Notes: generated from the letters alone by a model not told the origin. A stretch of DNA of 64,000 nucleotides from Rikenellaceae bacterium (GCA_047174275.1 JBCQUC010000004.1:337-64336), one strand, 5' to 3'; shown: positions 8,646-59,333, counted from the first letter of the stretch. Numbers and translations are program-made.

Positions 8646-9116
8646 ATGGAACTTACATTTGAGATATGTGACTACTCAAATCCAGCACATTTGACCGCTG
8701 TAGCGGATCTTTTGCAGGGATATATGGCCGACCCGATGGGGGAGCATCGACCACACAATAAATTGGAGCAACTTCGGTTGGTTGATGGTTTGGCTAACCA
8801 TCCAGCTTCATTCGTACTTCTTGCTTGTGTCGAGGATCAAGCTATAGGATTTGCAACCTGTTTCGAACTATTCTCGACATTTGAGATTAAGCCATTCATA
8901 AATATCCACGATTTTTTCGTCTTGCCTTCCTATAGGGGGCATGGTATCGGACGTGCAATGTTGGAACATATCTCGGAGATTGCAGTCGAGAAAAAGTGTT
9001 GCAAGGTCTCTTTGGAGGTGCGTACAGACAATGCGGTGGCGCAGGGACTATACCGAAGTGTAGGGTTTGGCGAGGCAAATCCCGATATGTTGTTTTGGGT
9101 GAAAACCTTTTATTAG
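8646..9116 (+). CDS. GNAT-family N-acetyltransferase
   Basis: Acetyl-CoA motif A (V-LPSYRGHGIGRAML) and NAVAQGLYRSVGF; 5 bp after the nifA stop. Confidence 0.88.
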   Translation: MELTFEICDYSNPAHLTAVADLLQGYMADPMGEHRPHNKLEQLRLVDGLANHPASFVLLACVEDQAIGFATCFELFSTFEIKPFINIHDFFVLPSYRGHGIGRAMLEHISEIAVEKKCCKVSLEVRTDNAVAQGLYRSVGFGEANPDMLFWVKTFY

Positions 9117-9413
9117 TGTTCGATAAAAATCCAACAAACCTTTGTAATGCACTGTAATATAACAGATTGTATGCGTTTGTAAAATCAGGGACTTGCTTTT
9201 GCGAATAGTCCCATTTGAGATACGAAATTGAAAATTTCGTCATCCTGAACTTGTTTCAGGATCTCAGCAAATGACAATGTAGTCACAGTAGTGTGTTAAT
9301 AAACAATAGTTTAGTAAATGGTGTAGGGATCCTGAAACAAGTTCAGGATGACGAAATTTTCAATTTCGTATCTCACGTATGACTTGCTAGAAACGTTTTA
9401 TCAGACACTAATA
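9111..9413. mobile_element. Family 1 nested REP-doublet element, copy A
   Basis: Outer TIR TTAGTGT(C/T)(C/T)GATAAAA with TA flanks; inverted REPs GTCATCCTGAACTTGTTTCAGGATC(T/C)C around a 60-nt spacer (9266-9325). Confidence 0.85.
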
Positions 9414-9430
9414 AAAAAACTTTAGAGGAT

Positions 9431-9670
9431 ATGAGTATTCAGAATGCAATAAATTTCTTGGCACGAGTTCAATCAGATGATGATTATAGACAATCGTGCT
9501 ACAAATTTCGAACGAAACAAGACCTCATGGAATATATACAGCAGGAGGGCTATAGCTTTTCGGATGGGGAGTTTGAAAATGCTATAAACCATCTCCTGCT
9601 GCGATGCTCAGATGCGTCACAGGGGTACGAAGTGCACCACCTGCAAAGCTGGTTTAGTCTGTTTCAGTAG
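9431..9670 (+). CDS. Nif11-like small protein
   Basis: MSIQNAINFLARVQSDDDYRQ...QEGYSFS-E resembles the Nif11 pattern (MS...FL..V..D..LR...GY.FT.EE); AGAGGA ribosome-binding site. Confidence 0.7.
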   Translation: MSIQNAINFLARVQSDDDYRQSCYKFRTKQDLMEYIQQEGYSFSDGEFENAINHLLLRCSDASQGYEVHHLQSWFSLFQ

Positions 9671-10061
9671 CCGATTTTAGTCGTTCGGTTACCAAATCTT
9701 TTAGTTCATTTAGACCCTCGATCATCCTATCAATTTGTGGATTGTCGGGGGTTCTGTATCCAAAGTCATCAATCGAGCAGATACCTTCGAACGAGCCTAC
9801 CAAGACAGCTGTCTTTCTAAGGCTGAGGCTCAAATCTGGCTCGAAATCGTTCACTTCGCGATAGAGCATAAGCGGAAGATGACTCGTTGCAATTGAGTCG
9901 TGGTGCGCCAACCATGCTATCATAAACTTCTCGAAACATATTGCTATCATATTGTATAGCAGATCGTTGTCGAATTTGCGATTCGGATTGCTAAATGATG
10001 ATGTTATTGTGTTGAGGTAACTATTAGCAAAGTCATAGTTATCTTTGGCTAACTCTTTCAT
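9654..10061 (-). CDS. Hypothetical protein with possible HEPN-like fold
   Basis: 135 aa, helical; ICFEKFMIAWL and TSHLPLML resemble the HEPN 'EK.LKA.L' and 'THDL..L' motifs. Confidence 0.6.
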   Translation of the reverse strand: MKELAKDNYDFANSYLNTITSSFSNPNRKFDNDLLYNMIAICFEKFMIAWLAHHDSIATSHLPLMLYREVNDFEPDLSLSLRKTAVLVGSFEGICSIDDFGYRTPDNPQIDRMIEGLNELKDLVTERLKSATETD

Positions 10062-10064
10062 AGT

Positions 10065-10232
10065 TATAGGGGAGTTCTAATAATTCCCTAATTTTAATTT
10101 TTAGTTAATAATTGCCCATTTTTGATTTTGCAAAAGTGGGTTGTAGTGGCTCTACCACCGATTTTTGAAAAATCGAAAAGGGGTGGTTAGTAACTGAAGG
10201 GTATTTTAGGGAATTATTAGAACTCCCCTATA
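10065..10232. mobile_element. Family 3 MITE, copy 2
   Basis: TIRs GGGGAGTTCTAATAATTCCC at both ends (element 10069-10228), TATA on both flanks. Confidence 0.8.
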
Positions 10233-11349
10233 TTGTTTTGTATATTGACAATAGTTCCGTAGGCTCTAAATCTCGTTTGTTGAGTGTGCACCAACGGCGT
10301 ACCTCCTCCAGAAGTCGAGGCAGGATCTCATCTCGGCAGACAACTCCCAACTCCTCTAGTGCAGATTTGAGGGTCGCCATACACGTATGTTTTCCTATCT
10401 TAAATCGACGCTCTGTGAGCCCAATCTCTTCGGCTTTGATAAGTTGATATGTTGATCGATCGCGTTTTAGATACTTCGTGTGGATCCCACTCTCGTGTGT
10501 TAAAACGAGCTCTCCGACAATAGGCTTCGATACGCTGTTTTTGCGTCCCGATATTCTCTCAACATAGCTGCAAATCGAAGGGAATAGAGTCTTGTTGAGC
10601 CCAGTTGTGATACCTGTACTCTTCTCTATAGCCATCACAACCTCCTCCATCGCTGCGTTTCCAGCCCTCTCGCCCAATCCATTAACTGTTGTGCTGAGAG
10701 CATCTGCCCCTGCCATCCATGCCGCTATCGTATTCGCACACGCCATTCCCAAGTCGTTGTGGGCGTGAAACTCAATCGAAATATCAGGGCTGAGATCCCT
10801 TATCGGGCGAATTAGATCTTGTGTCGAGAATGGGTTGAGCAGACCAACTGTATCTGCTAGGCGTATCCTCTTAGCTCCACTCTTAATTGTCTCAAATGCA
10901 AACTCCTCAAGGAAATGGCTGTTAGCACGAGAGGCATCTTGAGCCCCGACACTTACATAATCGAATGTCTCGTAACTCCTCGTAACAATCTCTTGAATCT
11001 CCTTGAGCACCCATTTACGACTCTTACCCATCACTCCAAGCAGTTTGTCTGAGACAGGGAACGATAGATGTATTCCATCCACGCCACTCTTACGTGCAAG
11101 TTCGATCTCCGAAGGCATAGCTCTGCACCATGCCAACATCCTAGCATCGAAATTTGCATCGGTTATCGCCTTGATCTCTTCGATCGCAGCACACCCCATT
11201 GCTGGGGTTCCAACCTCAAACTCACTGACTCCCGCTTCACACAACATCGAGACTAGAGCGAACTTTTCATCGAGGGTAAATGCTACCCCCGACGCTTGTT
11301 CACCGTCACGAAGTGTAGTGTCTACAAATATAGGGTGCTTATAACTCAT
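10228..11349 (-). CDS. nifV: Homocitrate synthase
   Basis: DTTLRDGEQ, LADTVG, HAHNDLGMA, NGLGERAGNA, HESGIH; nif context. Confidence 0.92.
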   Translation of the reverse strand: MSYKHPIFVDTTLRDGEQASGVAFTLDEKFALVSMLCEAGVSEFEVGTPAMGCAAIEEIKAITDANFDARMLAWCRAMPSEIELARKSGVDGIHLSFPVSDKLLGVMGKSRKWVLKEIQEIVTRSYETFDYVSVGAQDASRANSHFLEEFAFETIKSGAKRIRLADTVGLLNPFSTQDLIRPIRDLSPDISIEFHAHNDLGMACANTIAAWMAGADALSTTVNGLGERAGNAAMEEVVMAIEKSTGITTGLNKTLFPSICSYVERISGRKNSVSKPIVGELVLTHESGIHTKYLKRDRSTYQLIKAEEIGLTERRFKIGKHTCMATLKSALEELGVVCRDEILPRLLEEVRRWCTLNKRDLEPTELLSIYKTI

Positions 11350-11358
11350 ATATGCTCT

Positions 11359-11667
11359 TTAGTCACTAATCAAATACTTCTCGCATGCCTCTCCATCTTC
11401 GAGCGCATCAAGGATCTCGTCGATCGCATCCTCGCTATCCACGCCGCCATACCAGAAATTTAGAGGTTGGATAACCATTGCTGGTCCTTGTGAACATACA
11501 TTTAGACAGGCTGTAGTGCTTACCACGACATCTAGTCCGCGGTCGCTTGTCTCCTCGACAATATATTGTAAAAGTTGTGGTGCTCCCTTTTTGTTGCAAA
11601 CACCCAATGCCTCGCCGCTAACTCTGTACGAGTTGCATAGCAGAATGTGATACTGTGGCTTTTTCAT
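11359..11667 (-). CDS. Thioredoxin-like [2Fe-2S] ferredoxin
   Basis: LLCNSYR..C..KG and TACLNVCSQGP..WYG pattern. Confidence 0.88.
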   Translation of the reverse strand: MKKPQYHILLCNSYRVSGEALGVCNKKGAPQLLQYIVEETSDRGLDVVVSTTACLNVCSQGPAMVIQPLNFWYGGVDSEDAIDEILDALEDGEACEKYLISD

Positions 11668-11752
11668 ACCCTGATAATTTTAATGTTAGTTGGTTATTCT
11701 GTTTTGTATTTACTACTTGTTGAAATATAAGTTTTGCTCCGCATTGGAGATT

Positions 11753-11867
11753 GTTGATAGGTGGATGAAATTTTGAAGATGGCGTAGAGGGCTCTGGAAG
11801 GAGCATACTTTAAGTATGTGACTGAAGAGAACTCTATGGTATCTTTAAAATTTCGCCGCCTTGCAAC
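11753..11867 (-). repeat. Family 2 stem-loop/REP element, copy a (after nifB)
   Basis: Imperfect terminal IRs GTTGATAGGTGG...CCGCCTTGCAAC around a central palindrome GCATACTT-T-AAGTATG-TGAC; the shared flank extends to about 11730. Confidence 0.8.
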
Positions 11868-11887
11868 AATCTCTGTTGTGAAGTGGA

Positions 11888-13141
11888 TCAACCGCATCCC
11901 ATTGCGTTCCCCTTGCAGTTTGATCCGCACTTGAAAGCGTCGCGTTTGGCTATAGACTTAATTACGCGGTTGCTATAGATTCCATCCAATCCCTCATCTA
12001 TAAGTCCTGTCATCTCAACAACATTGAGCCCAGAGCTCTTTAGAACCTTAAGTGGTTTGTCACCTACGCCACTTACAAGTAGTGCGCGACAATCTGAAAG
12101 CATCTTTGAGAGCATCTCCCAGCGGATATCACCCAATCCACGATCTGGAGTTTTGCGACTCTCGACCCACTTAAATCCATTTGGCGTTTGGCGATAAATA
12201 TTGAGTGAAGCAGCCTCTCCAAGATGCATATTTACAAGCATACCCTCATTTGTAGCTACGGCAACATATGGACGACTATCTGTGTCAACATCCGAACGCT
12301 GAGCATACTCGCTCATCAGAGCATGCGCTTCGCTCATATCCTGTCCCAAAAGACCAGCGGCATCCGCACGACACCTTGCGCAGTGGCTCATAAGTTTAAG
12401 GTGGTCTGACGCTAATGTGCGAACACGGAAGACCATCTTTGGATCAGGTTGCTCTAGATTCTCGAAAGCGGTGTCGGCAACAGGGATAAGCGGAATGCAG
12501 TTTATAACATCAGCACCCAATTCAGAGCATACTCTAGCAACCTCCTTGATCCCATCCTCGTTGATCGTTGGGATTATAATACTGTTGATCTTTACAGTTA
12601 TACCCTTCGCCTTTAGCTTTGGGATACATGCTAACTGCTTGTCGAGGAGTCTCTTTGCTCCATCTTCGCCTCGATAGATATGCTTTCCATCGCGAACCCA
12701 TTTGTAGATCTTCGCAAGAACCTTTGTGTCGATACTATTTATTGTGATGGTTACGTGGCTAACATTTAGCTCAGCAATCTCATCAATATATGGCTCTAGA
12801 CCAAGTCCATTTGTTGATAGGCAGAAGATCTTATCAGGGAATCTCTCGTGTGCAAGACGCATAGTCTCAAGAGTCTCCTCAGGGTTTGCAAATGGGTCTC
12901 CAGGGCCTGCAATACCAATTACCGACAGGTTTGGCATACGCTTATCGAGCTCCTCAAGATAACCTACAGATTGTTTTGGTGTGAGAATTGTCGATGTCAC
13001 TCCTGGGCGACTCTCGCTTACGCAATCATATTTGCGATTGCAATAGTTGCACTGAATATTGCACTTTGGCGCAACGGGTAGGTGTACTCGTGCGTGGGTA
13101 TGTTTTGCTTCAGCGTCGAAGCATGGGTGCTTGTGTTCCAT
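11888..13141 (-). CDS. nifB: FeMo-cofactor radical SAM protein NifB with C-terminal NifX-like domain
   Basis: HPCF, PKCNIQCNYC (CxxxCxxC), ESRPGV, IAGPGDP, HCARCRADA. Confidence 0.97.
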   Translation of the reverse strand: MEHKHPCFDAEAKHTHARVHLPVAPKCNIQCNYCNRKYDCVSESRPGVTSTILTPKQSVGYLEELDKRMPNLSVIGIAGPGDPFANPEETLETMRLAHERFPDKIFCLSTNGLGLEPYIDEIAELNVSHVTITINSIDTKVLAKIYKWVRDGKHIYRGEDGAKRLLDKQLACIPKLKAKGITVKINSIIIPTINEDGIKEVARVCSELGADVINCIPLIPVADTAFENLEQPDPKMVFRVRTLASDHLKLMSHCARCRADAAGLLGQDMSEAHALMSEYAQRSDVDTDSRPYVAVATNEGMLVNMHLGEAASLNIYRQTPNGFKWVESRKTPDRGLGDIRWEMLSKMLSDCRALLVSGVGDKPLKVLKSSGLNVVEMTGLIDEGLDGIYSNRVIKSIAKRDAFKCGSNCKGNAMGCG

Positions 13142-13145
13142 GATC

Positions 13146-14450
13146 TTAAATGTATTTATACCCTACGGGTGAGTTCTCTTGTTTATACTCTATTAATGCG
13201 TTTACAACTCTATCAAATAGCTCTTGTGTGCCTCGATATCCGATCTTTAACTGACGAGCAGCTCCAAAACGGTCGTGGATCGGGAATCCAACACGTATGA
13301 TTGGGATCTTTAGTTCGCGAGCTATATAGTAACCTTTGCTGCTTCCCATCATAATGTCGGGTTTGATCTGGTTGAGTTTGGCGTGTATCGACTCAAAATC
13401 TGTATCGGTGAACGAATAGACCTCAAGTCCAATCTCCTTGCACCATGCTGATAGTGCCGAGACCAAATCTGCCTCTCCGTAGATTGCGATCTTTTTGCCG
13501 AATAGATATTTGTGAGCATCTACATACGCATCTATCAATCGTCCACGCTCCATCTGATACTTCTTTGGGATCTCAACTCCATACTCAGCACTGAGACACT
13601 CCATAAATCTATCCGAAGCCTCTATGCCAATTGGAATCGGCATCTGGGTGTTTTTTACTCCGCAATCACTCTCCAGCCACTCTCCACCTGTTGGGATACG
13701 CCCGCTCTCGGATGTACGTTTGTAGAACTGGTTGAATCTCTCTCCAAACTCAATGACAGCCTTTGCATCTCCACACTCCTCAATCTCTTTGAGTGGTGTT
13801 CCTCCACTTGGAATAAGTTGATACTCCGCTGTATATACATTGTCGAGTGACTCGCTGTAGTCGGGAAATACCGTCCCCGTAACACCAAAGTCAGCGATGA
13901 TCTCCTTGATATATCTGATATCGGCAGGTGTCACCATTCCTGGTAGAACAACTAGCTTCTCGGTTCGCTTAGTTGACTTTGCGAGTGTCTTTAATGCTGA
14001 GAGAACCGTATTGTGAAACCCTTCGGCATGCGATCCACAGTAGCTAGGTGTCGAACTATGGATAAATGCTGGAAGATTATCCGACATCTTTGCATCGCGG
14101 TAGTTTCTGATGTGACCTGGGATATCCTCACCAATTGTCTCCGAGAGACATGTAGAGGCGATTCCGATCACCTTTGGGTGGTACTGTTTTATTATATTGT
14201 CTATTCCTGTTATGAAGTTTTTACTTCCTCCATATACCGTCGACTCCTCCGAAAAGTTGCTCGATGCAATATCTACGGGCTCTTTGTAGTGGCTAATCAT
14301 ATATCGGCGGATATATGTTGCACACCCTTGTGATCCGTGAATAAGCGGAACACAACCCTCAATCCCCTTGAATACCAACGATGCTCCAAGTGGGGCGCAA
14401 AGTTTGCAAGCGTTGCGCGACGATACGTATGTTTTATCCTCTGTTTTCAT
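13146..14450 (-). CDS. nifN: Nitrogenase cofactor scaffold NifN
   Basis: CAPLGA, HGSQGCATY, TCLSETIGED, GFPIHDR. Confidence 0.92.
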   Translation of the reverse strand: MKTEDKTYVSSRNACKLCAPLGASLVFKGIEGCVPLIHGSQGCATYIRRYMISHYKEPVDIASSNFSEESTVYGGSKNFITGIDNIIKQYHPKVIGIASTCLSETIGEDIPGHIRNYRDAKMSDNLPAFIHSSTPSYCGSHAEGFHNTVLSALKTLAKSTKRTEKLVVLPGMVTPADIRYIKEIIADFGVTGTVFPDYSESLDNVYTAEYQLIPSGGTPLKEIEECGDAKAVIEFGERFNQFYKRTSESGRIPTGGEWLESDCGVKNTQMPIPIGIEASDRFMECLSAEYGVEIPKKYQMERGRLIDAYVDAHKYLFGKKIAIYGEADLVSALSAWCKEIGLEVYSFTDTDFESIHAKLNQIKPDIMMGSSKGYYIARELKIPIIRVGFPIHDRFGAARQLKIGYRGTQELFDRVVNALIEYKQENSPVGYKYI

Positions 14451-15792: not shown

Positions 15793-15808
15793 AACATTGA
15801 TTTTTTTG

Positions 15809-16086
15809 TATTAGTGTCCGATAAAACTTTCCTAGCAGTCCCATGTGAGATACGAAATTGAAAATTTCGTCATCCTGAACTTGTTTCAGGATCCCTGCAT
15901 TATTGATTAAGTTGTTGTGTGCTAATGTATTACAGGGGTTGTGTTGTCGTTTGCTGAGATCCTGAAACAAGTTCAGGATGACGAAATTTTCAATTTCGTA
16001 TCTCAAGTGAGACTATTAAGCCCCTAATTCCACAAACATATACAATCTGTTACAAAGGTTTGTCGGGTTTTTGTCGGACAGTAATA
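15809..16086. mobile_element. Family 1 nested REP-doublet element, copy B (nifK-nifE gap)
   Basis: Same layered IRs as copy A in the opposite orientation; 60-nt spacer; TA flanks. Confidence 0.85.
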
Positions 16087-16105
16087 ATTTTTTTTGTTTT
16101 GTTAA

Positions 16106-16148
16106 TTCGAAGATCTCAACCCTCTAATTTGAGGTTGAAATCTTCGAA
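16106..16148 (-). promoter_or_regulatory. Stem-loop immediately 3' of nifK
   Basis: TTCGAAGATCTCAACCCTC-TAATTT-GAGGTTGAAATCTTCGAA, 9 bp after the nifK stop; no U-tract on the minus strand. Confidence 0.6.
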
Positions 16149-16157
16149 AATATTGTA

Positions 16158-17537: not shown

Positions 17538-17550
17538 AATCTTTCCCTCT

Positions 17551-19179: not shown

Positions 19180-19190
19180 AGGAATCTTAT

Positions 19191-19556: not shown

Positions 19557-19588
19557 AGTAATCTAATTTATTAGTCGTTTTTTGTAAA

Positions 19589-19630
19589 GTTGATAGGTGG
19601 ATGAAATTTGAAATTTCGTCGCATTGCAAC
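19589..19630 (-). repeat. Family 2 element, internally deleted copy b (after nifI1)
   Basis: GTTGATAGGTGGATGAAATTT-GAAATTTCGTCGCATTGCAAC: only the terminal arms remain. Confidence 0.7.
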
Positions 19631-19631
19631 T

Positions 19632-19958: not shown

Positions 19959-19996
19959 TGTCTTGATTTTTTATTTGGTTTGTGTTTTGCTCAAAA

Positions 19997-20111
19997 GTTG
20001 ATAAGTGGATGAGATCTTGTGCATCGTAAGCTGGCGGAGGAGGGAGCATACTTTGGGTATGTGACCGATTGCCGACAGCTTGGGATGTGCAAGATCTCAC
20101 CACCTTGCAAC
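19997..20111 (-). repeat. Family 2 element, copy c (after nifH)
   Basis: GTTGATAAGTGG...GAGCATACTTTGGGTATGTGAC...CCACCTTGCAAC with divergent inner arms. Confidence 0.75.
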
Positions 20112-21298: not shown

Positions 21299-21539
21299 TA
21301 TTAGTGTTCGATAAAACTTTTCTAGCAGTCCTACTTGAGATACGAAATTGAAAATTTCGTCATCCTGAACTTGTTTCAGGATCTCTACATCATTGAGTAA
21401 GCTATTGCTTATTAGTATATTACAGAGGCGATATTGTCATTTGCTGAGATCCTGAAACAAGTTCAGGATGACGAATCCGTTGGATTCGATAACATGGTGC
21501 CAATAAAGTTGTTACAAGTGTTGTTATCGGACACTGATA
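21299..21539. mobile_element. Family 1 nested REP-doublet element, copy C
   Basis: Outer TIRs with TA flanks, REP doublet, 60-nt spacer; an extra REP remnant follows at 21545-21557. Confidence 0.85.
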
Positions 21540-21570
21540 AACTCGTTTCAGGATCTCCGCAGAGCTAATT

Positions 21571-23002: not shown

Positions 23003-23071
23003 GAAATTTCCCCCAAAATTTATAAATTAGAGATTATTGCAAAACGGTAGTTTTGCTCCGCTATGGAGAGT

Positions 23072-23185
23072 GTTGATAGGTGGATGAAAATTTAAAGATG
23101 GCGTAGAGGGCCCTGAAAGGAGCATACTGAAGTATGTGACTGAAGAGAACTCTGCGTTATCTTTGAATTTTCGCCGCCTTGCAAC
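23072..23185 (-). repeat. Family 2 element, copy d (after modA)
   Basis: Near-identical to copy a, including the left flank AGTTTTGCTCCGC. Confidence 0.8.
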
Positions 23186-23193
23186 GCTCTCAA

Positions 23194-28505: not shown

Positions 28506-28710
28506 TGTTAGTGTCCGAAAAAACTTTTCTAGCACTCCCATGTGAGATGCGAAATTGAAAATTTCGTCATCCTGAACTTGTTTCAGGATCTCTGCATCAT
28601 TGAGTAAGTTGTATTGTCGTTTGCTGAGATCCTGAAACAAGTTCAGGATGACGACTCTTTCAGAGTCGAGACGAGTCGAGACGTGCTGCAAAGGTTTTGT
28701 CGGACAAATA
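28506..28710. mobile_element. Family 1 element, copy D (shortened spacer, collapsed right arm)
   Basis: REP doublet around a 33-nt spacer; degenerate outer TIRs. Confidence 0.8.
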
Positions 28711-28757
28711 AATCCAAGAATAAGAGGTTACCCTCCCCCATACATAATATATAACAG

Positions 28758-31541: not shown

Positions 31542-33323
31542 CTACTTCTCGTTTCTCTCCATTGCAGCCTTCAACTCAGCAAGACCTGCGATATCACCAA
31601 GTGTAGTCTTCTCTACAGATGCGTTTAGCTTCTTAACAGCTGACTTAGCAACATCTGCTGCTGCACGCTTCTCAGCCATCTCAGCCTTAGCCTCACCACG
31701 CTTGATATCCTCAGCGATACGTGTGTGTGACAATGTGATACGCTTAGTAGCCTTAGAGAACTCGATCACCTTGAACCGCATCTTCTCACCTACAACTGGA
31801 GTTGTGTTATCCTCTTTAACAAGTTGGCGTGAAGGAGCAAATCCCTCTACATTCTCGCTCAAAGATACTACAGCACCCTTATCGTTGATCTCTGTGATTG
31901 TACCCTCTTGGATAGAGTTTACACCGAATTGGCTCTCGAACTCATTCCATGGGTTCTCCTCCAACTGCTTGTGACCCAAGCTCAAACGACGGTTGTCTTT
32001 GTCGATCTCAAGCACAACAACATCGATTGGAGCACCAACTGTTGTGAACTCACCTGGGTGCTTCACCTTCTTAGTCCAGCTCAAATCTGAGATGTGGATA
32101 AGACCGTCGATACCCTCCTCGATCTCAACGAATACACCGAAGTTTGTGAAGTTACGAACCTTTGAGTTGCACTTTGTACCAACTGGGTACTTAGCCTCGA
32201 TTCCGTCCCATGGATCTGGAGTCAACTGCTTGATACCAAGTGACATCTTGCGCTCCTCGCGATCAAGAGTCAAGATCACAGCCTCGATAGTGTCACCAAC
32301 CTTCATGAAGTCCTGAGCAGAACGTAGGTGTTGGCTCCAAGACATCTCAGATACGTGGATAAGACCCTCAACACCTGTTGCGATCTCAACGAATGCACCA
32401 TAGTCAGCCATTACAACCACGCGACCCTCAACCTTATCACCTACAGAAAGCTCTGCACTCAAAGCCTCCCATGGGTGTGGAGTAAGCTGCTTCAATCCAA
32501 GAGCGATACGCTTCTTAGCGTCATCGAAGTCAAGGATAACAACGTTGATCTTCTGATCCAAAGTAACGATCTCATCTGGATGGCTTACGCGACCCCATGA
32601 AAGATCTGTGATGTGGATAAGACCATCTACGCCACCAAGGTCGATAAATACACCATATGATGTGATGTTCTTAACTGTACCCTCAAGGATCTGTCCCTTC
32701 TCAAGCTTAGACATGATAATCTGCTTCTGGATCTCAAGCTCAGCCTCGATAAGAGCCTTGTGAGAAACAACAACATTGCGGAACTCCTGGTTGATCTTAA
32801 CAACCTTGAACTCCATAGTCTTATCTACATAGATATCGTAGTCGCGGATTGGCTTCACATCGATCTGAGAACCTGGCAAGAAAGCCTCTATTCCGAATAC
32901 ATCAACGATCATACCACCCTTAGTGCGGCACTTGATGTAACCCTTGATGATCTCGTCCTTCTCCAAAGCCTCGTTAACACGATCCCAAGATTTAAGCTGA
33001 CGAGCCTTCTTGTGAGATAGAGCAAGCTGACCGTTACGATCCTCTGCTGACTCCACATAAACCTCAACAACATCGCCTGCTGCGATCTCTGGGTTATAGC
33101 GGAACTCCGAGATTGAGATTACACCCTCACTCTTATAACCGATGTTGATAACAACCTCGCGCTTTGTTACTGTTGTTACTGTACCATCTACAACCTCGCC
33201 TACAGCGACATTAGAGAGGGTTTTGTCATACGCCTCAGCGATAGACTCTTTGCTCTGATCGTAAACTGCTGATTCGTTCTCGAATGCTGACCAGTCAAAA
33301 TTTTCGTTCTGTGTGTTTTCCAT
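31542..33323 (-). CDS. rpsA: 30S ribosomal protein S1
   Basis: Repeated S1 domains (YGVFIDLGGVDGLIHI..LSW). Confidence 0.97.
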   Translation of the reverse strand: MENTQNENFDWSAFENESAVYDQSKESIAEAYDKTLSNVAVGEVVDGTVTTVTKREVVINIGYKSEGVISISEFRYNPEIAAGDVVEVYVESAEDRNGQLALSHKKARQLKSWDRVNEALEKDEIIKGYIKCRTKGGMIVDVFGIEAFLPGSQIDVKPIRDYDIYVDKTMEFKVVKINQEFRNVVVSHKALIEAELEIQKQIIMSKLEKGQILEGTVKNITSYGVFIDLGGVDGLIHITDLSWGRVSHPDEIVTLDQKINVVILDFDDAKKRIALGLKQLTPHPWEALSAELSVGDKVEGRVVVMADYGAFVEIATGVEGLIHVSEMSWSQHLRSAQDFMKVGDTIEAVILTLDREERKMSLGIKQLTPDPWDGIEAKYPVGTKCNSKVRNFTNFGVFVEIEEGIDGLIHISDLSWTKKVKHPGEFTTVGAPIDVVVLEIDKDNRRLSLGHKQLEENPWNEFESQFGVNSIQEGTITEINDKGAVVSLSENVEGFAPSRQLVKEDNTTPVVGEKMRFKVIEFSKATKRITLSHTRIAEDIKRGEAKAEMAEKRAAADVAKSAVKKLNASVEKTTLGDIAGLAELKAAMERNEK

Positions 33324-35685: not shown

Positions 35686-35895
35686 TATTAGTGTCCGATA
35701 AAACTTTTCTAGCAGTCCCGTTTGAGATACGAAATTGAAAATTTCGTCATCCTGAACTTGATTCAGGATCTCTGCGTTATCAACAAGTGTTTATTAATTA
35801 GTGCATTAATCTATAATATTATTATTTGCTGAGATCCTGAAACAAGTTCAGGATGACGTTCCTTGCGGAACGTATCTCAAGTGGGACTATTGGTA
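35686..35895. mobile_element. Family 1 element, copy E (right outer TIR absent)
   Basis: Left TIR, inner arms on both sides, REP doublet, 58-nt spacer. Confidence 0.8.
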
Positions 35896-35916
35896 AAAAC
35901 ATTCACTACTCTTTGA

Positions 35917-40891: not shown

Positions 40892-40892
40892 T

Positions 40893-43244: not shown

Positions 43245-43276
43245 TTAATTCATTTTTGCCAAATTAGGGGCTTGCC

Positions 43277-43536
43277 TTTGTACCATGTTTCGACTCTGAA
43301 AGAGTCGTCATCCTGAACTTGATTCAGGATCTCCCGAATTTCGCCAAAGGCGGAATCTCGGGAACATTATCAAATTTTTGTAATACTCTCTTTTTCTACG
43401 TATTCTCTTCGTGCCCGAGATTTAGTTTCACTAAATTCGGGAGATCCTGAATCAAGTTCAGGATGACGAATCCGTTGGATTCGATAACATGCTACCAATA
43501 GAGTTACTCCTGTCATCCTTTTATCGGACACGAATA
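43277..43536. mobile_element. Family 1 element, copy F (different spacer with extra nested IRs)
   Basis: REP doublet (TGATTC variant) enclosing CCCGAATTT/AAATTCGGG inverted arms; right outer TIR present. Confidence 0.8.
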
Positions 43537-48172: not shown

Positions 48173-48246
48173 GTCTTTAAATAAGGGCTATATATATAAT
48201 TTTAACTATATTTGTCGTTTGTAAATCAAGCCTTCTGGCCACTCTG

Positions 48247-50949: not shown

Positions 50950-50954
50950 ACTTT

Positions 50955-52526: not shown

Positions 52527-52544
52527 ATAAATTTTACAGAAATA

Positions 52545-54128
52545 ATGACACAACACGAAGAGATAATTAGACGAAGAACCTTTGCTGTAATCGCCCATCC
52601 AGATGCTGGTAAGACAACCCTAACAGAGAAACTGCTCCTCTTTGGAGGTGCGATCCATGTTGCGGGAGCTGTCAAGAGCAACAAGATCAAAAAGGGGGCT
52701 ACATCAGACTTTATGGAGATCGAGAGACAGCGTGGTATCTCGGTGGCGACATCTGTTATGGGTTTTGAGTATAAGGGTGCGAAGATCAACATCTTGGATA
52801 CTCCAGGTCATGAGGATTTTGCGGAGGATACATTTAGAACGTTGACAGCCGTAGACTCTGTGATTATTGTGATCGATGGAGCTAAGGGAGTTGAGTCGCA
52901 GACGTTGAAGTTGATGAATGTCTGCCGTATGCGCAAAACCCCAGTTATCGTCTTTGTGAATAAGATGGATAGACCCTGTAAAGAGCCATTTGACCTGTTG
53001 GACGATATCGAGAAGGAGCTTCAAATTAGGGTGCGTCCATTGTCGTTCCCGATTTCGAGTGGCCCGACATTTAAGGGTGTCTACAATCTATACAACCATA
53101 ACCTCTCGTTATTTACCTCTGATGAGCGTCAAACGGCGGCAGCTGAGACTGTTGAAATCGCAGATATTATGCAGCCAGAGTTGGATGATTATATCGAGGA
53201 GCGTTATGCAAATCAGATCCGCGAAGATATCGAGATCGTTGAGGGGGTATACGATGAGTTTGATCGTGATGCCTACCTACGAGGTGAGTTAGCACCAGTA
53301 TTTTTTGGTTCAGCGGTGAATAATTTTGGAGTGCGTGAGTTGTTGGAGTGTTTTATTGAGGTTGCGCCATCACCACGCCTTGCAACAACAGAGACCCGAA
53401 ACATCGACCCAGAGGAGGCTAAATTGTCGGGCTTTATCTTTAAGATCCATGCAAATATGGATCCGAACCACCGCAACCGTATCGCCTTTATGAAGATATG
53501 TTCGGGAACATTTGAACGAAATAAAAATTATCTGCATGTGCGTAGTGGCAAGCAGATGAAGTTCTCATCTCCAACGGCATTTATGGCGGAGAAGAAGTCA
53601 ATCATCGATGAGGCTTTCCCAGGGGATATCGTTGGTCTACACGATGCTGGTAACTTCGCGATTGGAGATACATTTACTGAGGGTGAGAAGTTGAAATTTA
53701 CGGGAATACCATCATTTGCACCTGAGCAGTTCCGATATATCGAGAATGCAGATCCTATGAAGTTCAAGCAGCTTGCAAAGGGTGTCGATCAGCTTATGGA
53801 TGAGGGTGTTGCACAGCTGTTTACATCGAGTCTGAACGGACGAAAGATCATCGGAACAGTTGGTGCACTTCAGTTTGAGGTTATCCAATATCGTCTGGAG
53901 CATGAGTATACAGCAGCGTGTAGATGGGAGCCAATCTCGATCTATAAGGCGTGTTGGATCACAAGCGACAATGCAGAGCAGTTGGCAGATTTCAAGCGTA
54001 GAAAACATACAAATATGGCGGTTGACAAACATGGTCGCGATGTCTTTTTAGCAGATACAAGCTACGGTTTGGCACTTGCTCAGGAGAACTTCAAAGATGT
54101 CAATTTCGCATTCACTTCAGAGTTTTAA
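52545..54128 (+). CDS. prfC: Peptide chain release factor 3
   Basis: [33 protein letters not shown]. Confidence 0.97.
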
Positions 54129-54131
54129 AGT

Positions 54132-56000
54132 ATGCTTAACTACCTAACAGTTGATAACTTAACAAAGAGTTATGGAGATTTAATCCTCTTCGAGAAGATC
54201 AATTTCACGATCGGAGAGGGTGAGCGAGTGGGCTTAATTGCACGCAATGGTGCAGGAAAGAGCACGTTGCTTACAACACTTATGTCGGGTGAAGATCTGG
54301 AGGGTGGTGAGGTGACATTTATGCGCGATCTTCGTGTCGCCTATCTTGTTCAAGAGCCCTCTTTCCCGGGGAATCTATCGGTCTTGGAGGCTTGTTTTAC
54401 GGGAGAGAGCCCTGCGTTGAGGGTGATCTCGGAGTATGAGCGAGCTATGAGCATCGGAGATGATAGAGCCATTCAAGAGGCGGTCTCAAAGATGGATGAG
54501 TTTGCGGCATGGGACTATGAATCGAAGATCAAAAATATACTCTCACAGCTCAAAATCAATGAGTTTGATAAGAAGATCTCGATGTTGTCGGGTGGTCAAT
54601 TGAAGCGTGTAGCATTAGCAAATGCACTCATCAACGAACCTGAACTGTTGATCCTTGATGAGCCTACGAACCACCTTGACCTCGATGTTACGATGTGGTT
54701 GGAGAGCTACTTGACAAGTAGTCGAATATCACTCTTGATGGTGACCCACGATCGTTACTTCTTGGATCGAGTCTGCAATAGAATCTTGGAGATCGACGAG
54801 CAGAAGATATTCTCATACCGCGGAAACTATAGCTACTACCTCGAAAAGCGAGAGGAGCGCAAATCGGCAGCGGCACAGCAGCAAGCGAGCGACGAAAATC
54901 TCTACCGCAAGGAGTTAGAGTGGATGCGTCGTCAACCTCAGGCGCGAGCTACAAAGGCAAGGTCTCGAATAGAGAGCTTCTATGATCTGGAGGATAGATT
55001 GCGACGTGAAAGAGAGCAGGGTAGCGTGAAGCTCGATGTCAAGGCGACATATATCGGAAAGAAGATCTTCGAGGTTGAGAATCTCAATAAAGCGTATGGC
55101 GATCGGGTGATTCTGAAAGATTTCTCATATCTATTTTCGAGATACGAGAAGATGGGGATCGTCGGTGAGAATGGAGTTGGTAAGTCTACATTCTTGAAGA
55201 TGTTGATGGGGGAGGTTGCTCCCGATAGTGGAAAGATCGACATTGGGCAGACCGTTAAATTTGGCTACTATTCGCAGGCTGGAATCACATTTGATAACGA
55301 TGCAAAGGTGATAGATGTGGTGAGTGATATCGCTGAATCGATCGATCTGGGCGATGGGCGAAAACTATCGGCATCTCAATTTCTGCAATACTTTCTCTTC
55401 GATCCAAAGGTGCAACACAACTTCGTTGGACGTTTGAGTGGGGGTGAGCGTCGTAGACTCTATCTGTGTACGGTGTTGATGCAAAATCCCAACTTCTTGA
55501 TCCTTGATGAGCCTACCAATGACCTCGATATCATGACTTTGCAGGTTCTGGAGGAGTATCTACAACACTTCTCGGGGTGTGTGATCGTAGTCTCGCATGA
55601 TCGTTACTTTATGGATAAGGTGGCGGATCATCTGTTGGTCTTTGAGGGCGAGGGCAGGGTGAAAGATTTTCCATCGTCATATACCGATTTCTTGGTCTGG
55701 CGCGACCTTAAAGCGCAGCAGGAGCAGCCATCTCGCGAGACAAAAAAGGAGTCAACGCCCCAACCCAAAAAGGAGAGCACTCAATCGAATAAGCTGAGCT
55801 TCAAGGAGAAACGAGAGTTGGAGCAGATCGAGAAAGAGCTTCCAGAGCTAGAGGCTCGAAAGGCGGAGCTAGAGCAGGAGTTAAGCAGCGGAGCTCTATC
55901 TGTGGCGGATCTAACCGCTAAATCGGAGCAGATTTCGTCAATCATAGATGAGATCGACGAGAAGAGTATGCGTTGGTTGGAACTAAGCGAGAGGTGTTAA
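54132..56000 (+). CDS. ABC-F family ATPase (Uup-like)
   Basis: Two ABC domains, no TM domain, C-terminal coiled coil LSFKEKRE. Confidence 0.92.
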   Translation: MLNYLTVDNLTKSYGDLILFEKINFTIGEGERVGLIARNGAGKSTLLTTLMSGEDLEGGEVTFMRDLRVAYLVQEPSFPGNLSVLEACFTGESPALRVISEYERAMSIGDDRAIQEAVSKMDEFAAWDYESKIKNILSQLKINEFDKKISMLSGGQLKRVALANALINEPELLILDEPTNHLDLDVTMWLESYLTSSRISLLMVTHDRYFLDRVCNRILEIDEQKIFSYRGNYSYYLEKREERKSAAAQQQASDENLYRKELEWMRRQPQARATKARSRIESFYDLEDRLRREREQGSVKLDVKATYIGKKIFEVENLNKAYGDRVILKDFSYLFSRYEKMGIVGENGVGKSTFLKMLMGEVAPDSGKIDIGQTVKFGYYSQAGITFDNDAKVIDVVSDIAESIDLGDGRKLSASQFLQYFLFDPKVQHNFVGRLSGGERRRLYLCTVLMQNPNFLILDEPTNDLDIMTLQVLEEYLQHFSGCVIVVSHDRYFMDKVADHLLVFEGEGRVKDFPSSYTDFLVWRDLKAQQEQPSRETKKESTPQPKKESTQSNKLSFKEKRELEQIEKELPELEARKAELEQELSSGALSVADLTAKSEQISSIIDEIDEKSMRWLELSERC

Positions 56001-56001
56001 T

Positions 56002-56412
56002 ATGGCTGCTAGTTGCGAAATATGTGGAGAGCCGATACCTCCGCACTCTCGTATCTGCCCTAATTGCCTCCTGAATGCCTCTTACTCAGCTGAAATCCAA
56101 GGGTTTGAATCACCTGTTAAGATGCTATCAATAATGAGATCTTCGGTCGATGAGTATCTCTCGATCAAATCTCCAAAAATATGGAGTGATAGGGTAGAGT
56201 CTCGGGAGATAATTGCAACCTTTGAGTGCGTTCGAGATGTTGTGATGATCGCCTTTGGTGATAACTCCGATGTTGTGGATGCAGTTGCAGCGATGGAGGA
56301 TCTCTTCTATGAGAGAATAGAACAACACCGACAATACCAAAAGCGTTGTCGGTGTCTGCTTATTATATCTGTTATAGCCCTGATATTCTCTTTATTTGCG
56401 CTAATTTATTGA
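56002..56412 (+). CDS. Hypothetical zinc-ribbon protein with C-terminal TM
   Basis: CEICG..CPNC at the N-terminus, hydrophobic C-terminus; starts 1 bp after the ABC-F stop. Confidence 0.6.
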   Translation: MAASCEICGEPIPPHSRICPNCLLNASYSAEIQGFESPVKMLSIMRSSVDEYLSIKSPKIWSDRVESREIIATFECVRDVVMIAFGDNSDVVDAVAAMEDLFYERIEQHRQYQKRCRCLLIISVIALIFSLFALIY

Positions 56413-59032
56413 GTGCTTCAAGAGGGGTTAATGAGTCTATATCTAACCCTTTAACTTGGTTGCGAATCTCGATAAGCACAGGGTCATCGAGCTGGAACAT
56501 AGAGAGTTGAATGCCACCTCTGTTTTTGTCGGCTGTTGCGATCTTTGGCGCAATATCTCTGTCTGTTGTATCCCCACTTCTGTGCTCTAATTCCAAGTTT
56601 TTGAGAATCTCATCGGCACGCGAGACCACCGATGTTGGCATTCCTGCCATTCTTGCAACATGGATTCCGAAGGATCTCTCGGCACTTCCTCGCTCCAATT
56701 TACGTACAAAGATAATCGTATTCTCCATCTCTTTGACACTCACATGGTAATTTTTCACGCGTGGACATAGCTCCTCCATCTCGTTGAGCTCATGGTAGTG
56801 TGTCGCAAATAGAGTCTTGGCGCGAGCAGTAGGGTGGTTGTGCAGATACTCCACCATCGCCCACGCGATCGAGATTCCATCATAAGTGCTTGTTCCACGT
56901 CCGATCTCATCGAGCAGAACAACGCTTCGATCCGATATATTATTTAGAATCGATGCCGACTCCAACATCTCCACCATAAATGTCGACTCTCCTTGCGATA
57001 TATTATCCGAAGCACCAACACGTGTAAATATCTTATCAACAACCCCAATCTCAGCCGATGCCGCAGGGACAAAAGAGCCCATCTGAGCCATCAATATAAT
57101 AAGTGCAGTTTGGCGAAGAAGAGCCGATTTACCCGACATATTCGGGCCAGTTATCATGATTATCTGCTGCTCTTCATCATCCAAAATAACATCGTTTGGC
57201 ACATATTTCTCGCCAATTGGCATCAAGGTCTCGATCACTGGGTGTCGCCCCTGTTTGATCTCGATTCGTTTTCCGTCGGTGAGTTGAGGGCGCGTATATC
57301 GACCCTCGCACGCCATTCTCGCGAAGGATTGGAGGATGTCGACTCTCGCTATAGATTGTGCATTTCGTTGAAGCGATGCTAGAGATCGGGTTATAAACTC
57401 AATTATTTGTGCAAATAATCTCTGTTCGATCTCTATTATTCGACCCTCTGCACCGAGGATCTTCTCTTCGTACTCCTTTAATTCAGCTGTGATATATCGC
57501 TCCGCAGATGTAAGGGTCTGTTTTCTGACCCACTCTTCGGGAACACAATCTTTGTGTGTATTTCGAACCTCTATATAGTAACCAAATACATTGTTGAAGC
57601 TGATCTTAAGCGATGGAATGCCAGTGCGTTGACTCTCTCGCTCAACGATCTTCTGTAACACATCTTTTCCGTGGAGTGCCACTCGACGCAGATCATCGAG
57701 CTCTGGATCGACACCGTCAGCTATCACACCACCCTTTAAGATATTATTTTGTGGATCGGGATATATCTCCTCAGCAAGGCGTTTGTGGATCTCGGGAAGT
57801 GGATCTATCGACGATGATAGGTCGCTAATAACTTGAACTTCGGAGCTCTCCAATACATCTTTTAATTGGAGGATAGCCTCCAATGAACACTTTAGCTGAA
57901 CCAACTCGCGCGGTGTAACTCTTTGAGCTGCAATACGCGCCGCAATCCTCTCAATGTCGCCAATGAGAGCAATCTGATCCTCGATACTCATCGCTAAGTC
58001 TCGATCCATAACCATCGCTGAAACTATGTCTAAGCGACGATTTATCCTCTCAACATTGCGAATAGGCATCGCAACCCAACGACGCAACATTCTACCCCCC
58101 ATCGGTGTGCGAGTCCTATCAATTACATTTGCAAAGCCTACACGTCCCTCTGAGCCATCCGTAGATCCACCCTGAGCAAAGAGCTCCAAATTTCGTATCG
58201 TGAATCTATCAATCCAGACATGTTCGCTCTCGTCAATTCTCGATATCGAGTTGATATGCGCAATCTGTTTATGCTCCGTAAATTCGAGATATGCAAGTGT
58301 CGCTCCAGCGGCAGAGATTGCATTTCCCATACGCTCGACACCAAATCCTTTGAGCGATTTTGTTCCAAATTGAGCAGATAGTTTCTCGCGGCTCACATCC
58401 TCCGAGAAGAGCCACTCATCGAGTTTATAGGTGTATAATTTGTGCCCAAAGGCGTTCGCAAAACGTAGATCGTGCCCTCTTTGGTATAGAACCTCTTTTG
58501 GCGCGAAGTTCGAGATTAATTTATCAACATATGCATCACTTCCCTCCGAACAGTAGAACTCTCCAGTCGATATATCGAGAAAAGCAACTCCTGTGCTCTT
58601 ATCCCCGAAATATACCGATGCCAGATATCTATTCTCCTTGGTTGTGAGTGAGTTTTCGCCCATTACAACACCAGGGGTTACAAGCTCCACAACACCGCGT
58701 TTGACTAACCCTTTGACCATCTTTGGATCTTCCAATTGCTCACAAATAGCAACTCGCGCACCTGCACGAACCAACTTCGGAAGGTAGGTCTCAACAGAGT
58801 GGTATGGGAATCCTGCTAACTCCACAAAGCTAGCTGCTCCATTGGCACGTCGTGTTAGGGTGATACCAAGAATTTGGCTGGCGCGTATAGCATCCTCGCC
58901 AAATGTCTCGTAGAAATCTCCCACGCGAAAGAGTAGTATAGCATCGGGGTGTACCGCCTTGATGTTGTAGTATTGCTTCATCAAAGGTGTCTCGACATAT
59001 TTTTTCTCAGCTTTTTTTTGCTCTTTGCTCAC
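56372..59032 (-). CDS. mutS: DNA mismatch repair protein MutS
   Basis: TPLMKQY, FRVGDFYE, TGPNMSGKS, DEIGRGTST, FATHYHEL. Confidence 0.97.
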   Translation of the reverse strand: MSKEQKKAEKKYVETPLMKQYYNIKAVHPDAILLFRVGDFYETFGEDAIRASQILGITLTRRANGAASFVELAGFPYHSVETYLPKLVRAGARVAICEQLEDPKMVKGLVKRGVVELVTPGVVMGENSLTTKENRYLASVYFGDKSTGVAFLDISTGEFYCSEGSDAYVDKLISNFAPKEVLYQRGHDLRFANAFGHKLYTYKLDEWLFSEDVSREKLSAQFGTKSLKGFGVERMGNAISAAGATLAYLEFTEHKQIAHINSISRIDESEHVWIDRFTIRNLELFAQGGSTDGSEGRVGFANVIDRTRTPMGGRMLRRWVAMPIRNVERINRRLDIVSAMVMDRDLAMSIEDQIALIGDIERIAARIAAQRVTPRELVQLKCSLEAILQLKDVLESSEVQVISDLSSSIDPLPEIHKRLAEEIYPDPQNNILKGGVIADGVDPELDDLRRVALHGKDVLQKIVERESQRTGIPSLKISFNNVFGYYIEVRNTHKDCVPEEWVRKQTLTSAERYITAELKEYEEKILGAEGRIIEIEQRLFAQIIEFITRSLASLQRNAQSIARVDILQSFARMACEGRYTRPQLTDGKRIEIKQGRHPVIETLMPIGEKYVPNDVILDDEEQQIIMITGPNMSGKSALLRQTALIILMAQMGSFVPAASAEIGVVDKIFTRVGASDNISQGESTFMVEMLESASILNNISDRSVVLLDEIGRGTSTYDGISIAWAMVEYLHNHPTARAKTLFATHYHELNEMEELCPRVKNYHVSVKEMENTIIFVRKLERGSAERSFGIHVARMAGMPTSVVSRADEILKNLELEHRSGDTTDRDIAPKIATADKNRGGIQLSMFQLDDPVLIEIRNQVKGLDIDSLTPLEALNKLAQIKRISGL

Positions 59033-59054
59033 GGTGTTGAATTTTTGTTGTTTT

Positions 59055-59333
59055 TATTAGATGAAATTTTCTAGCAGTCCCACTTGAGATACGTTCCGCA
59101 AGGAACGTCATCCGAACTTGTTTTATTAGTGTCCGATAAAAGTTTGCGATTTATGTTGGTACCTCGTTTCGACTCACCAGAGTCGTCATCCTGAACTTGT
59201 TTCAGGATCCCTAACTATCAGTGTTTCAGATTCTTTGTAGAGATCCTGAAACAAGTTCAGGATGACGAATCCGTTGGATTCGATAACGTGGTGCCAATAA
59301 ATTTGCCGTTACTCTTTTTTTTAGATGCCAATA
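59055..59333. mobile_element. Family 1 element copy G (59124-59333) adjoining or inserted into a truncated copy (59055-59123)
   Basis: Left arm plus a broken REP, then a fresh TA-TTAGTGTCCGATAAAA terminus and a full REP doublet. Confidence 0.75.

Follow-up and report, generated by a model that had tools for sequence, protein, structure and literature searches.

REP doublets inside an IS4-type MITE: a probable origin of a layered repeat family in a Rikenellaceae genome

What kind of element is a repeat built of several nested layers, and by which route has it multiplied? The question is raised by a DNA stretch of 64,000 nt from a Rikenellaceae bacterium (GCA_047174275.1, JBCQUC010000004.1:337-64336), called here the window, in which seven loci, all intergenic, carry such a repeat. 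The window lies on contig C13 of a genome (G000, the own genome) of 2.21 Mb in 116 contigs, having 43.8% G+C and 98.9% completeness; coordinates without a contig label are window positions, counted from its first letter. The analysis indicated that a composite mobile element, non-autonomous and about 200-300 bp long, is probably present as a copy at each locus. Its centre is an inverted doublet of CGTC-tagged repetitive extragenic palindromes (REPs), a motif for which the genome encodes two putative Ssn proteins, and its shell a MITE (miniature inverted-repeat transposable element) of the IS4 family with 18-bp inverted ends TATTAGTGTCCGATAAAA. Such a unit would have been spread by an IS4 transposase in trans, with chimeras arising through the REP cores and with one hairpin module under constraint.

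The layers were located in the window by motif search. The outer terminal inverted repeat (TIR) motif TTAGTGTCCGATAAAA gave 10 matches at up to two mismatches (9113, 9396(-), 15811, 16069(-), 21301, 21522(-), 28508, 35688, 43519(-) and 59126), for which shuffled sequences expect 0.03. The CGTC-tagged REP, searched as a 28-mer at up to three mismatches, gave 14 matches forming seven convergent pairs at exactly the seven loci (shuffles expect 0). The order read at the loci is TIR, arm, mini-hairpin, REP, spacer and then the mirror image. The result is in accordance with a first-pass annotation of this DNA, which had described seven layered loci and the combination of two arm types, X and Y, as X-X in copies A, B and E, X-Y in C and Y-Y in F and G. 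The copies are as follows, where h1 to h5 denote classes of mini-hairpin and S32, S64 and S110 classes of spacer.

9111..9413: copy A, 303 bp, full-length composite; TIR, long linker, X, h1, REP(+) 9238-9265, S64, REP(-) 9326-9353, h1, X', short linker, TIR

15809..16086: copy B; TIR, short linker, X, h1, REP(+) 15868-15895, S64, REP(-) 15956-15983, h1, X', long linker, diverged TIR 16069-16084

21299..21539: copy C, X/Y chimera; TIR, short linker, X, h1, REP(+) 21358-21385, S64, REP(-) 21446-21473, h4, Y', TIR 21522-21537

21540..21561, plus strand: half REP core AACTCGTTTCAGGATCTCCGCA, directly adjoining copy C on its right side (listed as C13:21858 with the TIR ends next to a split REP)

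28506..28711: copy D; TIR 28508-28523, short linker, X, h1, REP(+) 28565-28592, short S64-type spacer, REP(-) 28626-28653, then the right side described below

35686..35897: copy E; TIR, short linker, X, h1, REP(+) 35745-35772 (A-type loop), spacer, REP(-) 35831-35858, h2 CGTTCCTTGCGGAACG, X'; right TIR absent

43266..43536: copy F, Y/Y; linker remnant, Y, h3, REP(+) 43306-43333, S110a spacer, REP(-) 43441-43468, h4, Y', TIR 43519-43534 followed by TA

59055..59123, plus strand: left-hand portion of an earlier element, with degenerate TIR, linker, X, h2 and the 5' REP half-core ending in ...GAACTTGTTT; split at the REP loop by copy G

59124..59305: copy G; TIR 59126-59141, short linker, Y, h5, REP(+) 59184-59211, S32, REP(-) 59240-59267, h4, Y'; right TIR absent

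Two of these loci differ from their first description. Copy D had been credited with a collapsed right arm; the arm is present and consists of h3, a 10-nt tandem duplication, the Y-variant arm AGACGTGCTGCAAAGG, which compares with the genome arm variant CTTTTGCACCACGTCT, and a degenerate TIR TTTTGTCGGACAAATAA at 28695-28711. At the position of copy D the sister species G053 has an extra gene in place of the element. The locus 59055/59124 does have the two starts reported for it, and the first of them belongs to the older element, in which the element beginning at 59124 interrupts the loop of the REP core. Similarly, the half REP at 21540-21561 appears to be the remnant of a REP whose loop received copy C. 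In copy F both REPs are of the A-loop type and the S110a spacer has hairpins of its own.

The nature of the outer layer was assessed from its ends and from the target-site duplication (TSD). The TA which had been taken as a target duplication outside the TIR belongs to the 18-bp TIR itself. When the element is bounded as TATTAGTG...CACTAATA, the nine outside bases match at 70% and 37 of 81 pairs are at least 8/9 identical, whereas other offsets or lengths of the flank comparison give a match of about 40%; the TSD is therefore 9 bp and not TA. The flanks of copy A (AAAACCTTT / AAAAAACTT(T)) are nearly identical and fit such a duplication (C13:9449 in the list of TSDs), and those of copy B are ATTTTTTTG / ATTTTTTTT. 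The same TIR is found at low copy in eight other genera of the family. An autonomous insertion sequence (IS) from another genus of the family (G097:C49:1111-2540, 1,430 bp) has this TIR and a perfect 9-bp TSD, ATTAGGAAT; its open reading frame (ORF) of 403 aa contains DUF4372 and DDE_Tnp_1, carries the motif YYRRWQIESLFKQLKQ and matches NF033592 'IS4 family transposase' with 194.9 bits (cut-off 115). Other genera also have MITEs of 69-358 bp with the same TIRs, perfect 9-bp TSDs, unrelated interiors and no REP. Judged by these ends and duplications, the outer layer is an IS4-family MITE. A MITE of the TA-duplicating IS630 type, as proposed earlier, was ruled out by the TSD register and by the IS4 transposase match; the sole DDE_3 match is a 104-aa fragment unrelated to the TIRs.

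The extent of the family was determined from REP cores collected at up to three mismatches. The own genome holds 736 cores, about one per 3 kb, and 337 to 344 convergent doublets; in 337 of 346 cases, neighbouring cores converge and have their CGTC tags outside. The elements amount to about 84 kb (3.8% of the genome) and occupy about 23% of the intergenic regions. At least one TIR stands at the expected distance, with up to three edits, in 238 of 344 doublets and both TIRs in 112, compared with 0.7% of flanks for a control pattern. The full-length family of about 302 bp comprises 25 copies with a median pairwise identity of 90% (range 80-98%, maximum 97.7%). The suggestion that a REP doublet was captured inside a TIR element is upheld, together with the idea that one repeat is shared by two systems, a DDE transposase working on the TIRs and a REP/Ssn hairpin system. 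The elements fragment assemblies, and many contig ends carry them.

The core itself had been called a CGTC-tagged REP doublet, and the tag, the stem, the loop and the inverted pairing agree with this assignment. Its layout is CG·TC-ATCCTGAA-CTTG(T/A)-TTCAGGAT-C, the CGTC tag standing at one end of a short palindrome with the stem ATCCTGAA/TTCAGGAT, the loop CTTGT or CTTGA and the tail C(T/C)C. The CG of the tagged core, CGTCATCCTGAACTTG(T/A)TTCAGGATC, can alternatively pair inside the adjoining mini-hairpin, and G064 shows a compensatory stem variant, CATTCTGAA...TTCAGAATC. The CGTC-tagged superfamily was described by Di Nocera et al. (2013), including the CGTC-2 family with an 8-bp stem from AT and a 5-nt loop (PMC3733652); the present core is a member of it and an Ssn-related motif of known kind. 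Members have an unpaired CGTC (or TGTC/CCTC) tag, a stem of 8-9 bp whose first two positions are complementary A/T, a loop of 4-5 nt and a short tail. Over 100 unrelated genomes contain the exact 26-mer CGTCATCCTGAACTTGTTTCAGGATC, where it usually forms a pair with another hairpin that covaries; the hosts include Sphingomonadales, Colwellia, Sulfurovaceae, many Bacteroidota, Treponema, Patescibacteria, a Heliobacteriaceae metagenome-assembled genome (MAG), Gastranaerophilaceae and Armatimonadota. The core sequence is printed in no paper found by the literature search, an Rfam search at gathering thresholds returned nothing beyond a tRNA, and a metagenome scan gave no match to the X-h1-REP junction.

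Chenal et al. (2025) reported that repeats of this type, under the names NTS/SRM, are bound and cut as single-stranded DNA (ssDNA) by small GIY-YIG nucleases (Ssn), the genes of which typically have these repeats on their flanks (PMC11893778). Besides uvrC, which was also matched, the own genome has two small GIY-YIG genes of 92 and 98 aa (PF01541, 67 and 70 bits) at C63:608-832 and C36:50103-50327, with REPs within about 100 nt of each. Residues Y6, Y17 and E64 of the own proteins are in register with those mutated in the SsnA of N. meningitidis (legend in PMC11893778), and the nearest solved structure is the UPF0213 GIY-YIG protein 1ZG2 (E = 3.6e-4). At motif loci of other phyla a homologue with 45-56% identity to the own GIY-YIG protein was found in 9 of 111, and in 7 of the 9 it lies within 160 nt of the motif. 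The ssn gene of G064 (C8:60194-60460) has REPs on both sides, at 60069-60094 and 60533-60558. The first-pass annotation had suggested a search for mobiliser genes near the motifs, which succeeded for the GIY-YIG genes and not for RAYT/HUH: the Y1 or REP-associated tyrosine transposase (RAYT) profile PF01797 had no match in the own genome and control matches in 6 of 14 genomes, and IS110 and TnpB genes, tried as mobilisers, likewise had no match in the own genome.

Some further observations concern these genes and cores. At C63:832-900 (minus strand) the start codon of the ssn-like gene overlaps the terminal bases of the right end of a MITE (…TTTTATCAGATACTATGCGT…), so that the element supplies the entire upstream region of the gene. 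The ssn homologue of the closest relative (L153, G053:C43:17189-17469) contains an in-frame TGA with 63-70% identity on either side and is possibly a pseudogene, with REPs about 200 nt downstream of it. In addition, 'stutter' arrays of 2-4 tandem partial REP 5' halves (CGTCATCCTGA plus 7-8 nt) stand directly upstream of a complete REP in L163, L164 and L167 of G064 and in L029, L035, L059 and L093 of other phyla. These arrays suggest that duplication recurs on the side of the tag, at which Ssn reportedly cuts.

The genome-wide anatomy of the elements revealed five discrete, perfectly paired mini-hairpins directly 5' of the tags, the closing CG of each being the CG of the tag:

h1: CGAAATT-GAA-AATTTCG, 323 half-elements

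h2: CGTTCC-GNNA-GGAACG, 128 half-elements

h3: CGACTCT-GAA-AGAGTCG, 96 half-elements

h4: CGAATCC-AAC-GGATTCG, 83 half-elements

h5: CGACTC-ACCA-GAGTCG, 28 half-elements

Across the genome, arm X (AGTCCCAYTTGAGATA) occurs only with h1 or h2 and arm Y (TTGGCACC..GTT..) only with h3, h4 or h5. The spacers fall into S64 (about 158 copies, with the ends CTGCATYAT and TCAGCAAACGA), S32 (about 98 copies) and S110a/b (about 66 copies, with internal hairpins of their own); exactly 4 doublets have no spacer ('collapsed'). T-loop REPs pair with S64 or S32 and A-loop REPs with S110, and the two halves of a doublet nearly always agree. Eight amplified architectures account for 221 of 344 doublets (64%), namely h1-S64-h2 (44), h1-S64-h1 (42), h3-S32-h1 (39), h2-S64-h1 (33), h1-S64-h4 (18), h3-S110a-h4 (18), h5-S32-h1 (17) and the S110b family (10). 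What had been described as shuffled arms is therefore correct as regards recombination of the layers and not as regards free assortment, since the outcome is a limited set of amplified architectures. No h2-h2, h3-h3 or h4-h4 homodimer is present among the genome doublets, about 21 being expected under random pairing by our own arithmetic, and their absence echoes the preference for heterodimers reported for CGTC-2/3 REPs (PMC3733652).

The layers also occur independently of one another. At least four MITE copies of 169 bp have no REP doublet (C4:54889-55059, C50:44162-44334, C79:15746-15918 and C108:15329-15501) and contain in its place the single palindrome X-CGAAATT-TTC-AATTTCG-X'. All carry individual 9-bp TSDs, such as ATTTTAAAC and ATAAACAAT; the sequence fits the family consensus, and the loop TTC is that of the right-hand hairpin. 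In the sister species the doublets are mostly bare REP-S32-REP with unique flanks, and those genomes have few or no TIRs; G064 also pairs the REP with a second CGTC hairpin, and one half-element of G053 has an X-h1 arm and a degenerate TIR. Such independence might be explained if REP, mini-hairpin, arm and TIR were each a separate mobile element, inserted successively at every locus, and the MITEs found in REP loops (see below) would fit the same picture. Successive insertion is nevertheless very improbable, for arms and mini-hairpins almost never occur without an adjacent REP (500 X arms against 472 half-elements of h1, h2 or inverted h1 with an X arm), the arm type is strictly coupled to the hairpin class, and whole 302-bp units are 90% identical and share a single TSD. 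No solitary mini-hairpins or arms with insertion signatures of their own were seen.

The comparison with relatives elucidated where the expansion took place. Among 60 members of the genus sampled beside G000, REP cores number 72 in G064, 50 in G053, 18 in G059, 5 in G054, 3 in G072 and 0 in the 55 others. These counts, together with the bare doublets of the sister species, show that the great expansion is confined to the single genome whose doublet lies inside a MITE. In the closest relatives, window locus B and two further loci correspond to short, 'empty' intergenic regions, and the empty sites which the first-pass annotation had proposed to look for do exist, the whole copy B unit being absent from the orthologous intergenic region of four sister species. 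At the empty sites of G053 the intergenic DNA is about 80% identical, which is too diverged for placing the boundaries or TSDs of TIR-less copies. Contig C204 of G059 (30.6 kb) holds 17 of the 18 REP cores of that genome in elements like those of G000 and may be mis-binned from a G000-like organism.

These data bear on a second explanation, spread in the manner of REP doublets forming hairpins (REPINs), by which the arm-to-arm unit would move as ssDNA through the Ssn nucleases or some other enzyme without any TSD, the IS4 TIRs being an occasional add-on. X-bounded copies with no detectable TIR or TSD do exist, ssn genes have flanking REPs both here and in G064, sister species hold tens of mostly bare, TIR-less doublets, and the arrangement NTS-ssnA-NTS was likened to an IS by Chenal et al. 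(PMC11893778). Spread of this kind is considered unlikely. Ssn is known as a nuclease only, with no strand transfer described (PMC11893778), the large expansion took place only where the doublet is inside a MITE (736 cores against at most 72 in relatives), TIR-to-TIR units are flanked by 9-bp TSDs, and many of the 'TIR-less' copies retain remnants of the MITE linker. Transposition of the REP doublet as part of an IS4-type MITE thus remains the preferred explanation.

The insertion sites of the MITE were also analysed. Of 312 TIR ends, 49 (16%) abut a REP core broken at the loop, always in the same register. The target at the loop is AACTTG(A/T)TT, the commonest 9-mers being AACTTGATT, AACTTGTTT and their complements, and complete nested cases duplicate the loop on both sides, for example at C21:15368-15639 and C53:1289-1557. 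REP loops make up roughly 0.3% of the genome, which gives a preference of about 50-fold by our own estimate, and because of this preference the elements land inside one another. Junctions of the REP-loop type in the window are 59055-59123/59124 and the half REP at 21540-21561. Five IS families are known to target REPs, among them IS4, represented by ISRm22 of S. meliloti (PMC1525189), a species also listed among the hosts of CGTC REPs (PMC3733652).

The following course of events is proposed. Most copies would have arisen by cut-and-paste of the whole TIR-to-TIR unit with an IS4 transposase acting in trans, as the 9-bp TSDs suggest, and the REP doublets would have hitch-hiked on this transposition. 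Different or nested copies share identical 25-nt REP cores, and recombination or deletion between these may then have generated a few chimeric architectures, each subsequently amplified, with X/X, X/Y and Y/Y arms, hairpins h1-h5 and spacers S32, S64 and S110 as products. For example, a MITE could insert into a REP loop; if the stretch between the 19-nt half core and the MITE's core were then deleted, an older left arm would be fused to a newer doublet, and window 59055-59305 may represent an intermediate of such an arm fusion.

The conservation of the individual layers was compared within the 25-copy family. Mean pairwise identity is 99.5-100% for h1, 98.7-99.7% for the REP, 91-94% for the X arms, 88-89% for the TIRs, 86-87% for the linkers and 82% for the spacer. 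The 41-nt module of mini-hairpin and REP is accordingly nearly invariant, while the rest of the element is of the order of 82-91% identical. Ascertainment does not explain this conservation, because few arms or TIRs occur without a recognisable REP. The module is either under purifying selection or continually homogenised, and Ssn binding, or another use as a hairpin at gene 3' ends, may be what constrains it. Its invariance within copies that have drifted by 10-20% points to a sequence- and structure-specific interaction.

A role at gene ends leads to a third explanation, in which the elements are structures selected by the host (terminators, stabilisers of mRNA 3' ends or protein sites) and their mobility is historical; it is compatible with an origin by MITE transposition. 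Occupancy is 53% in convergent, 21% in tandem and 10% in divergent intergenic regions, and 1 of 344 doublets lies inside a gene (crude ORF calls), although purifying selection against promoter disruption also predicts such a 3' bias. The hairpin modules are very strongly conserved and the fold is very stable (copy B as ssDNA, -70.7 kcal/mol, z = -13.9), whereas the orientation relative to transcription is unbiased (19:19) and the orthologous intergenic regions of sister species at locus B work without the element and retain their own terminator hairpin. SsnA, for its part, does not act on RNA (PMC11893778). As the principal account of the family, host selection therefore seems quite improbable.

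A joint reading of the mini-hairpin and the nuclease can be put forward as a speculation with a rather small chance of being right. The mini-hairpin would be the functional partner of Ssn, either shielding the roughly 700 own sites from cleavage as a form of self-immunity or positioning the cut, and nicking could drive a gene conversion by which arms are swapped and the modules of hairpin and REP are homogenised. The SsnA of N. meningitidis cuts a few nt 5' of the tag (PMC11893778), and since a cut at that position would here fall in the 3' strand of the mini-hairpin, shielding or positioning is conceivable. The basis for assigning this partner role is that the five stems are unrelated, always perfectly paired, always inclusive of the CG of the tag and 99.5-100% conserved in copies that drift elsewhere. 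If true, it would amount to a homing-like maintenance of non-coding repeats, coupled to a DDE MITE which carries and targets them.

Several results weigh against the composite MITE or qualify parts of it. The assembly, 98.9% complete and in 116 contigs, yielded no homologue of the G097 transposase; the gene may have been lost or have escaped assembly, and its absence from a fragmented MAG is weak evidence. The DDE genes of the own assembly are an unrelated IS5-type gene at a contig end and fragments. At up to three edits 106 doublets have no recognisable TIR, and the S110b family has differing flanks and no TIRs; either the elements can to some extent spread or persist without the TIRs, or the TIRs of old copies have decayed. 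The REP-less MITE fits an ancestor as well as a deletion derivative of the REP-bearing one. Recombination at the REP cores is deduced from architecture, and it is size, residue register and context that suggest membership of the two predicted GIY-YIG proteins in the Ssn family. Collection of cores at up to three mismatches inflates core conservation somewhat, yet it cannot yield 99%.

Other repeats were noticed in the window and in the genome. A second, unrelated family has copies of about 145 nt at 11730-11873 and 23049-23191 (89-91% identity) and a 25-nt fragment at 19589-19613, all just downstream of genes. An inverted pair of about 160 nt, 4137-4299 and 10068-10229, is 74-79% complementary and 5.8 kb apart; both members are intergenic, on either side of the block with copy A, and may be a further repeat of MITE type. 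A third dispersed repeat, GCTCAGCGGAGAGCACTCCGCC...CTCGCTCTCT...CTCCACAGAGAGCGAAA, occurs at G000:C93 ~10978-11070 (L155 279-351), at L131 ~4280-4390 and at many sites in G053 and G059; it is 85-100% identical in sister species without the MITE and often adjoins REP elements. Three diverged direct repeats at 32076-32633 (period 258-261 nt, 66-72% identity), within the minus-strand ORF 31542-33323, are read as an internal protein domain repeat and not as a mobile element. An assignment of ORFs 949-4137 and 4317-5798 to SusC/SusD was wrong, 4317-5798 being cysS.

The layered design had first been reported as unrecognised; it follows from two known phenomena, namely the occurrence of REP dimers within longer palindromes (PMC3733652) and the targeting of REPs by IS elements (PMC1525189). 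With the CGTC REP/SRM and Ssn system (Di Nocera et al. 2013; Chenal et al. 2025) the present family shares the 5' CGTC tag, the 8-bp stem from AT and the 5-nt loop. It also shares hundreds of intergenic copies, mostly inverted dimers with conserved and sometimes structured spacers, the bias to gene 3' ends, the small single-domain GIY-YIG genes flanked by the repeat and the favouring of heterodimers. It differs by the density of one core per 3 kb, by the five mini-hairpins at the tags and by the shell of a DDE transposon. Those papers stress alpha-Proteobacteria, Neisseria and Rickettsia/Wolbachia, and the present host is outside these groups; 'Bacteroid' is absent from the 2025 text (PMC11893778), although the exact motif is in several Bacteroidota genomes. 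In 2013 it was stated that CGTC REPs seemed to have no transposase of their own (PMC3733652). Their link to Ssn dates from 2025 and the route to hundreds of copies has been an open question, for which this genome offers one concrete route: a REP doublet in an IS4-type MITE has reached about a quarter of the intergenic regions, with 9-bp TSDs as the trace. The elements adjoin nitrogen-fixation and other operons, which is relevant for annotation and for operon boundaries.

Compared with mosaic repeats, the family shares with the bacterial interspersed mosaic elements (BIMEs) of enterobacteria and the neisserial intergenic mosaic elements (NIMEs) the combination of a conserved REP with few alternative flanking or spacer motifs. 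The REPs of BIMEs are of the GTAG type with RAYT, and NIMEs are long arrays of RS units between dRS3 copies, whereas here a single palindromic doublet has transposon ends and TSDs. In the REPINs with RAYT of Bertels and Rainey (2011) it is reportedly the doublet that evolves as a unit, with few singletons and a conserved spacer length. These three features are common to both; the present genome differs by having no Y1/RAYT, a CGTC instead of a GTAG tag and TSDs of DDE type. In A. variabilis (GTAG-15) and H. neapolitanus (CGTC-1), REP dimers regularly lie inside a longer palindrome never found without them, and the point was left there, with no TIR/TSD shell, alternative arms or mini-hairpin classes reported (PMC3733652).

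The literature search found no description of a MITE that both carries and targets a REP doublet, of a burst to one core per 3 kb from such a MITE, or of strongly conserved mini-hairpins that are interchangeable and formed around the tag's CG. Every component is of known kind. The 18-bp TIRs, the 9-bp TSD and the autonomous IS4 relative with the same ends are common to IS4 MITEs, and a strong preference for REP hairpins is shared with IS1397/ISKpn1 (IS3), ISPpu9/10 and IS621 (IS110) and ISRm22 (IS4) (PMC1525189). Unlike those elements, the targeting MITE, whose transposase is not in the assembly, itself carries a REP doublet, so that each insertion destroys one target and adds two, and the combination shows one way in which such hairpins can spread.

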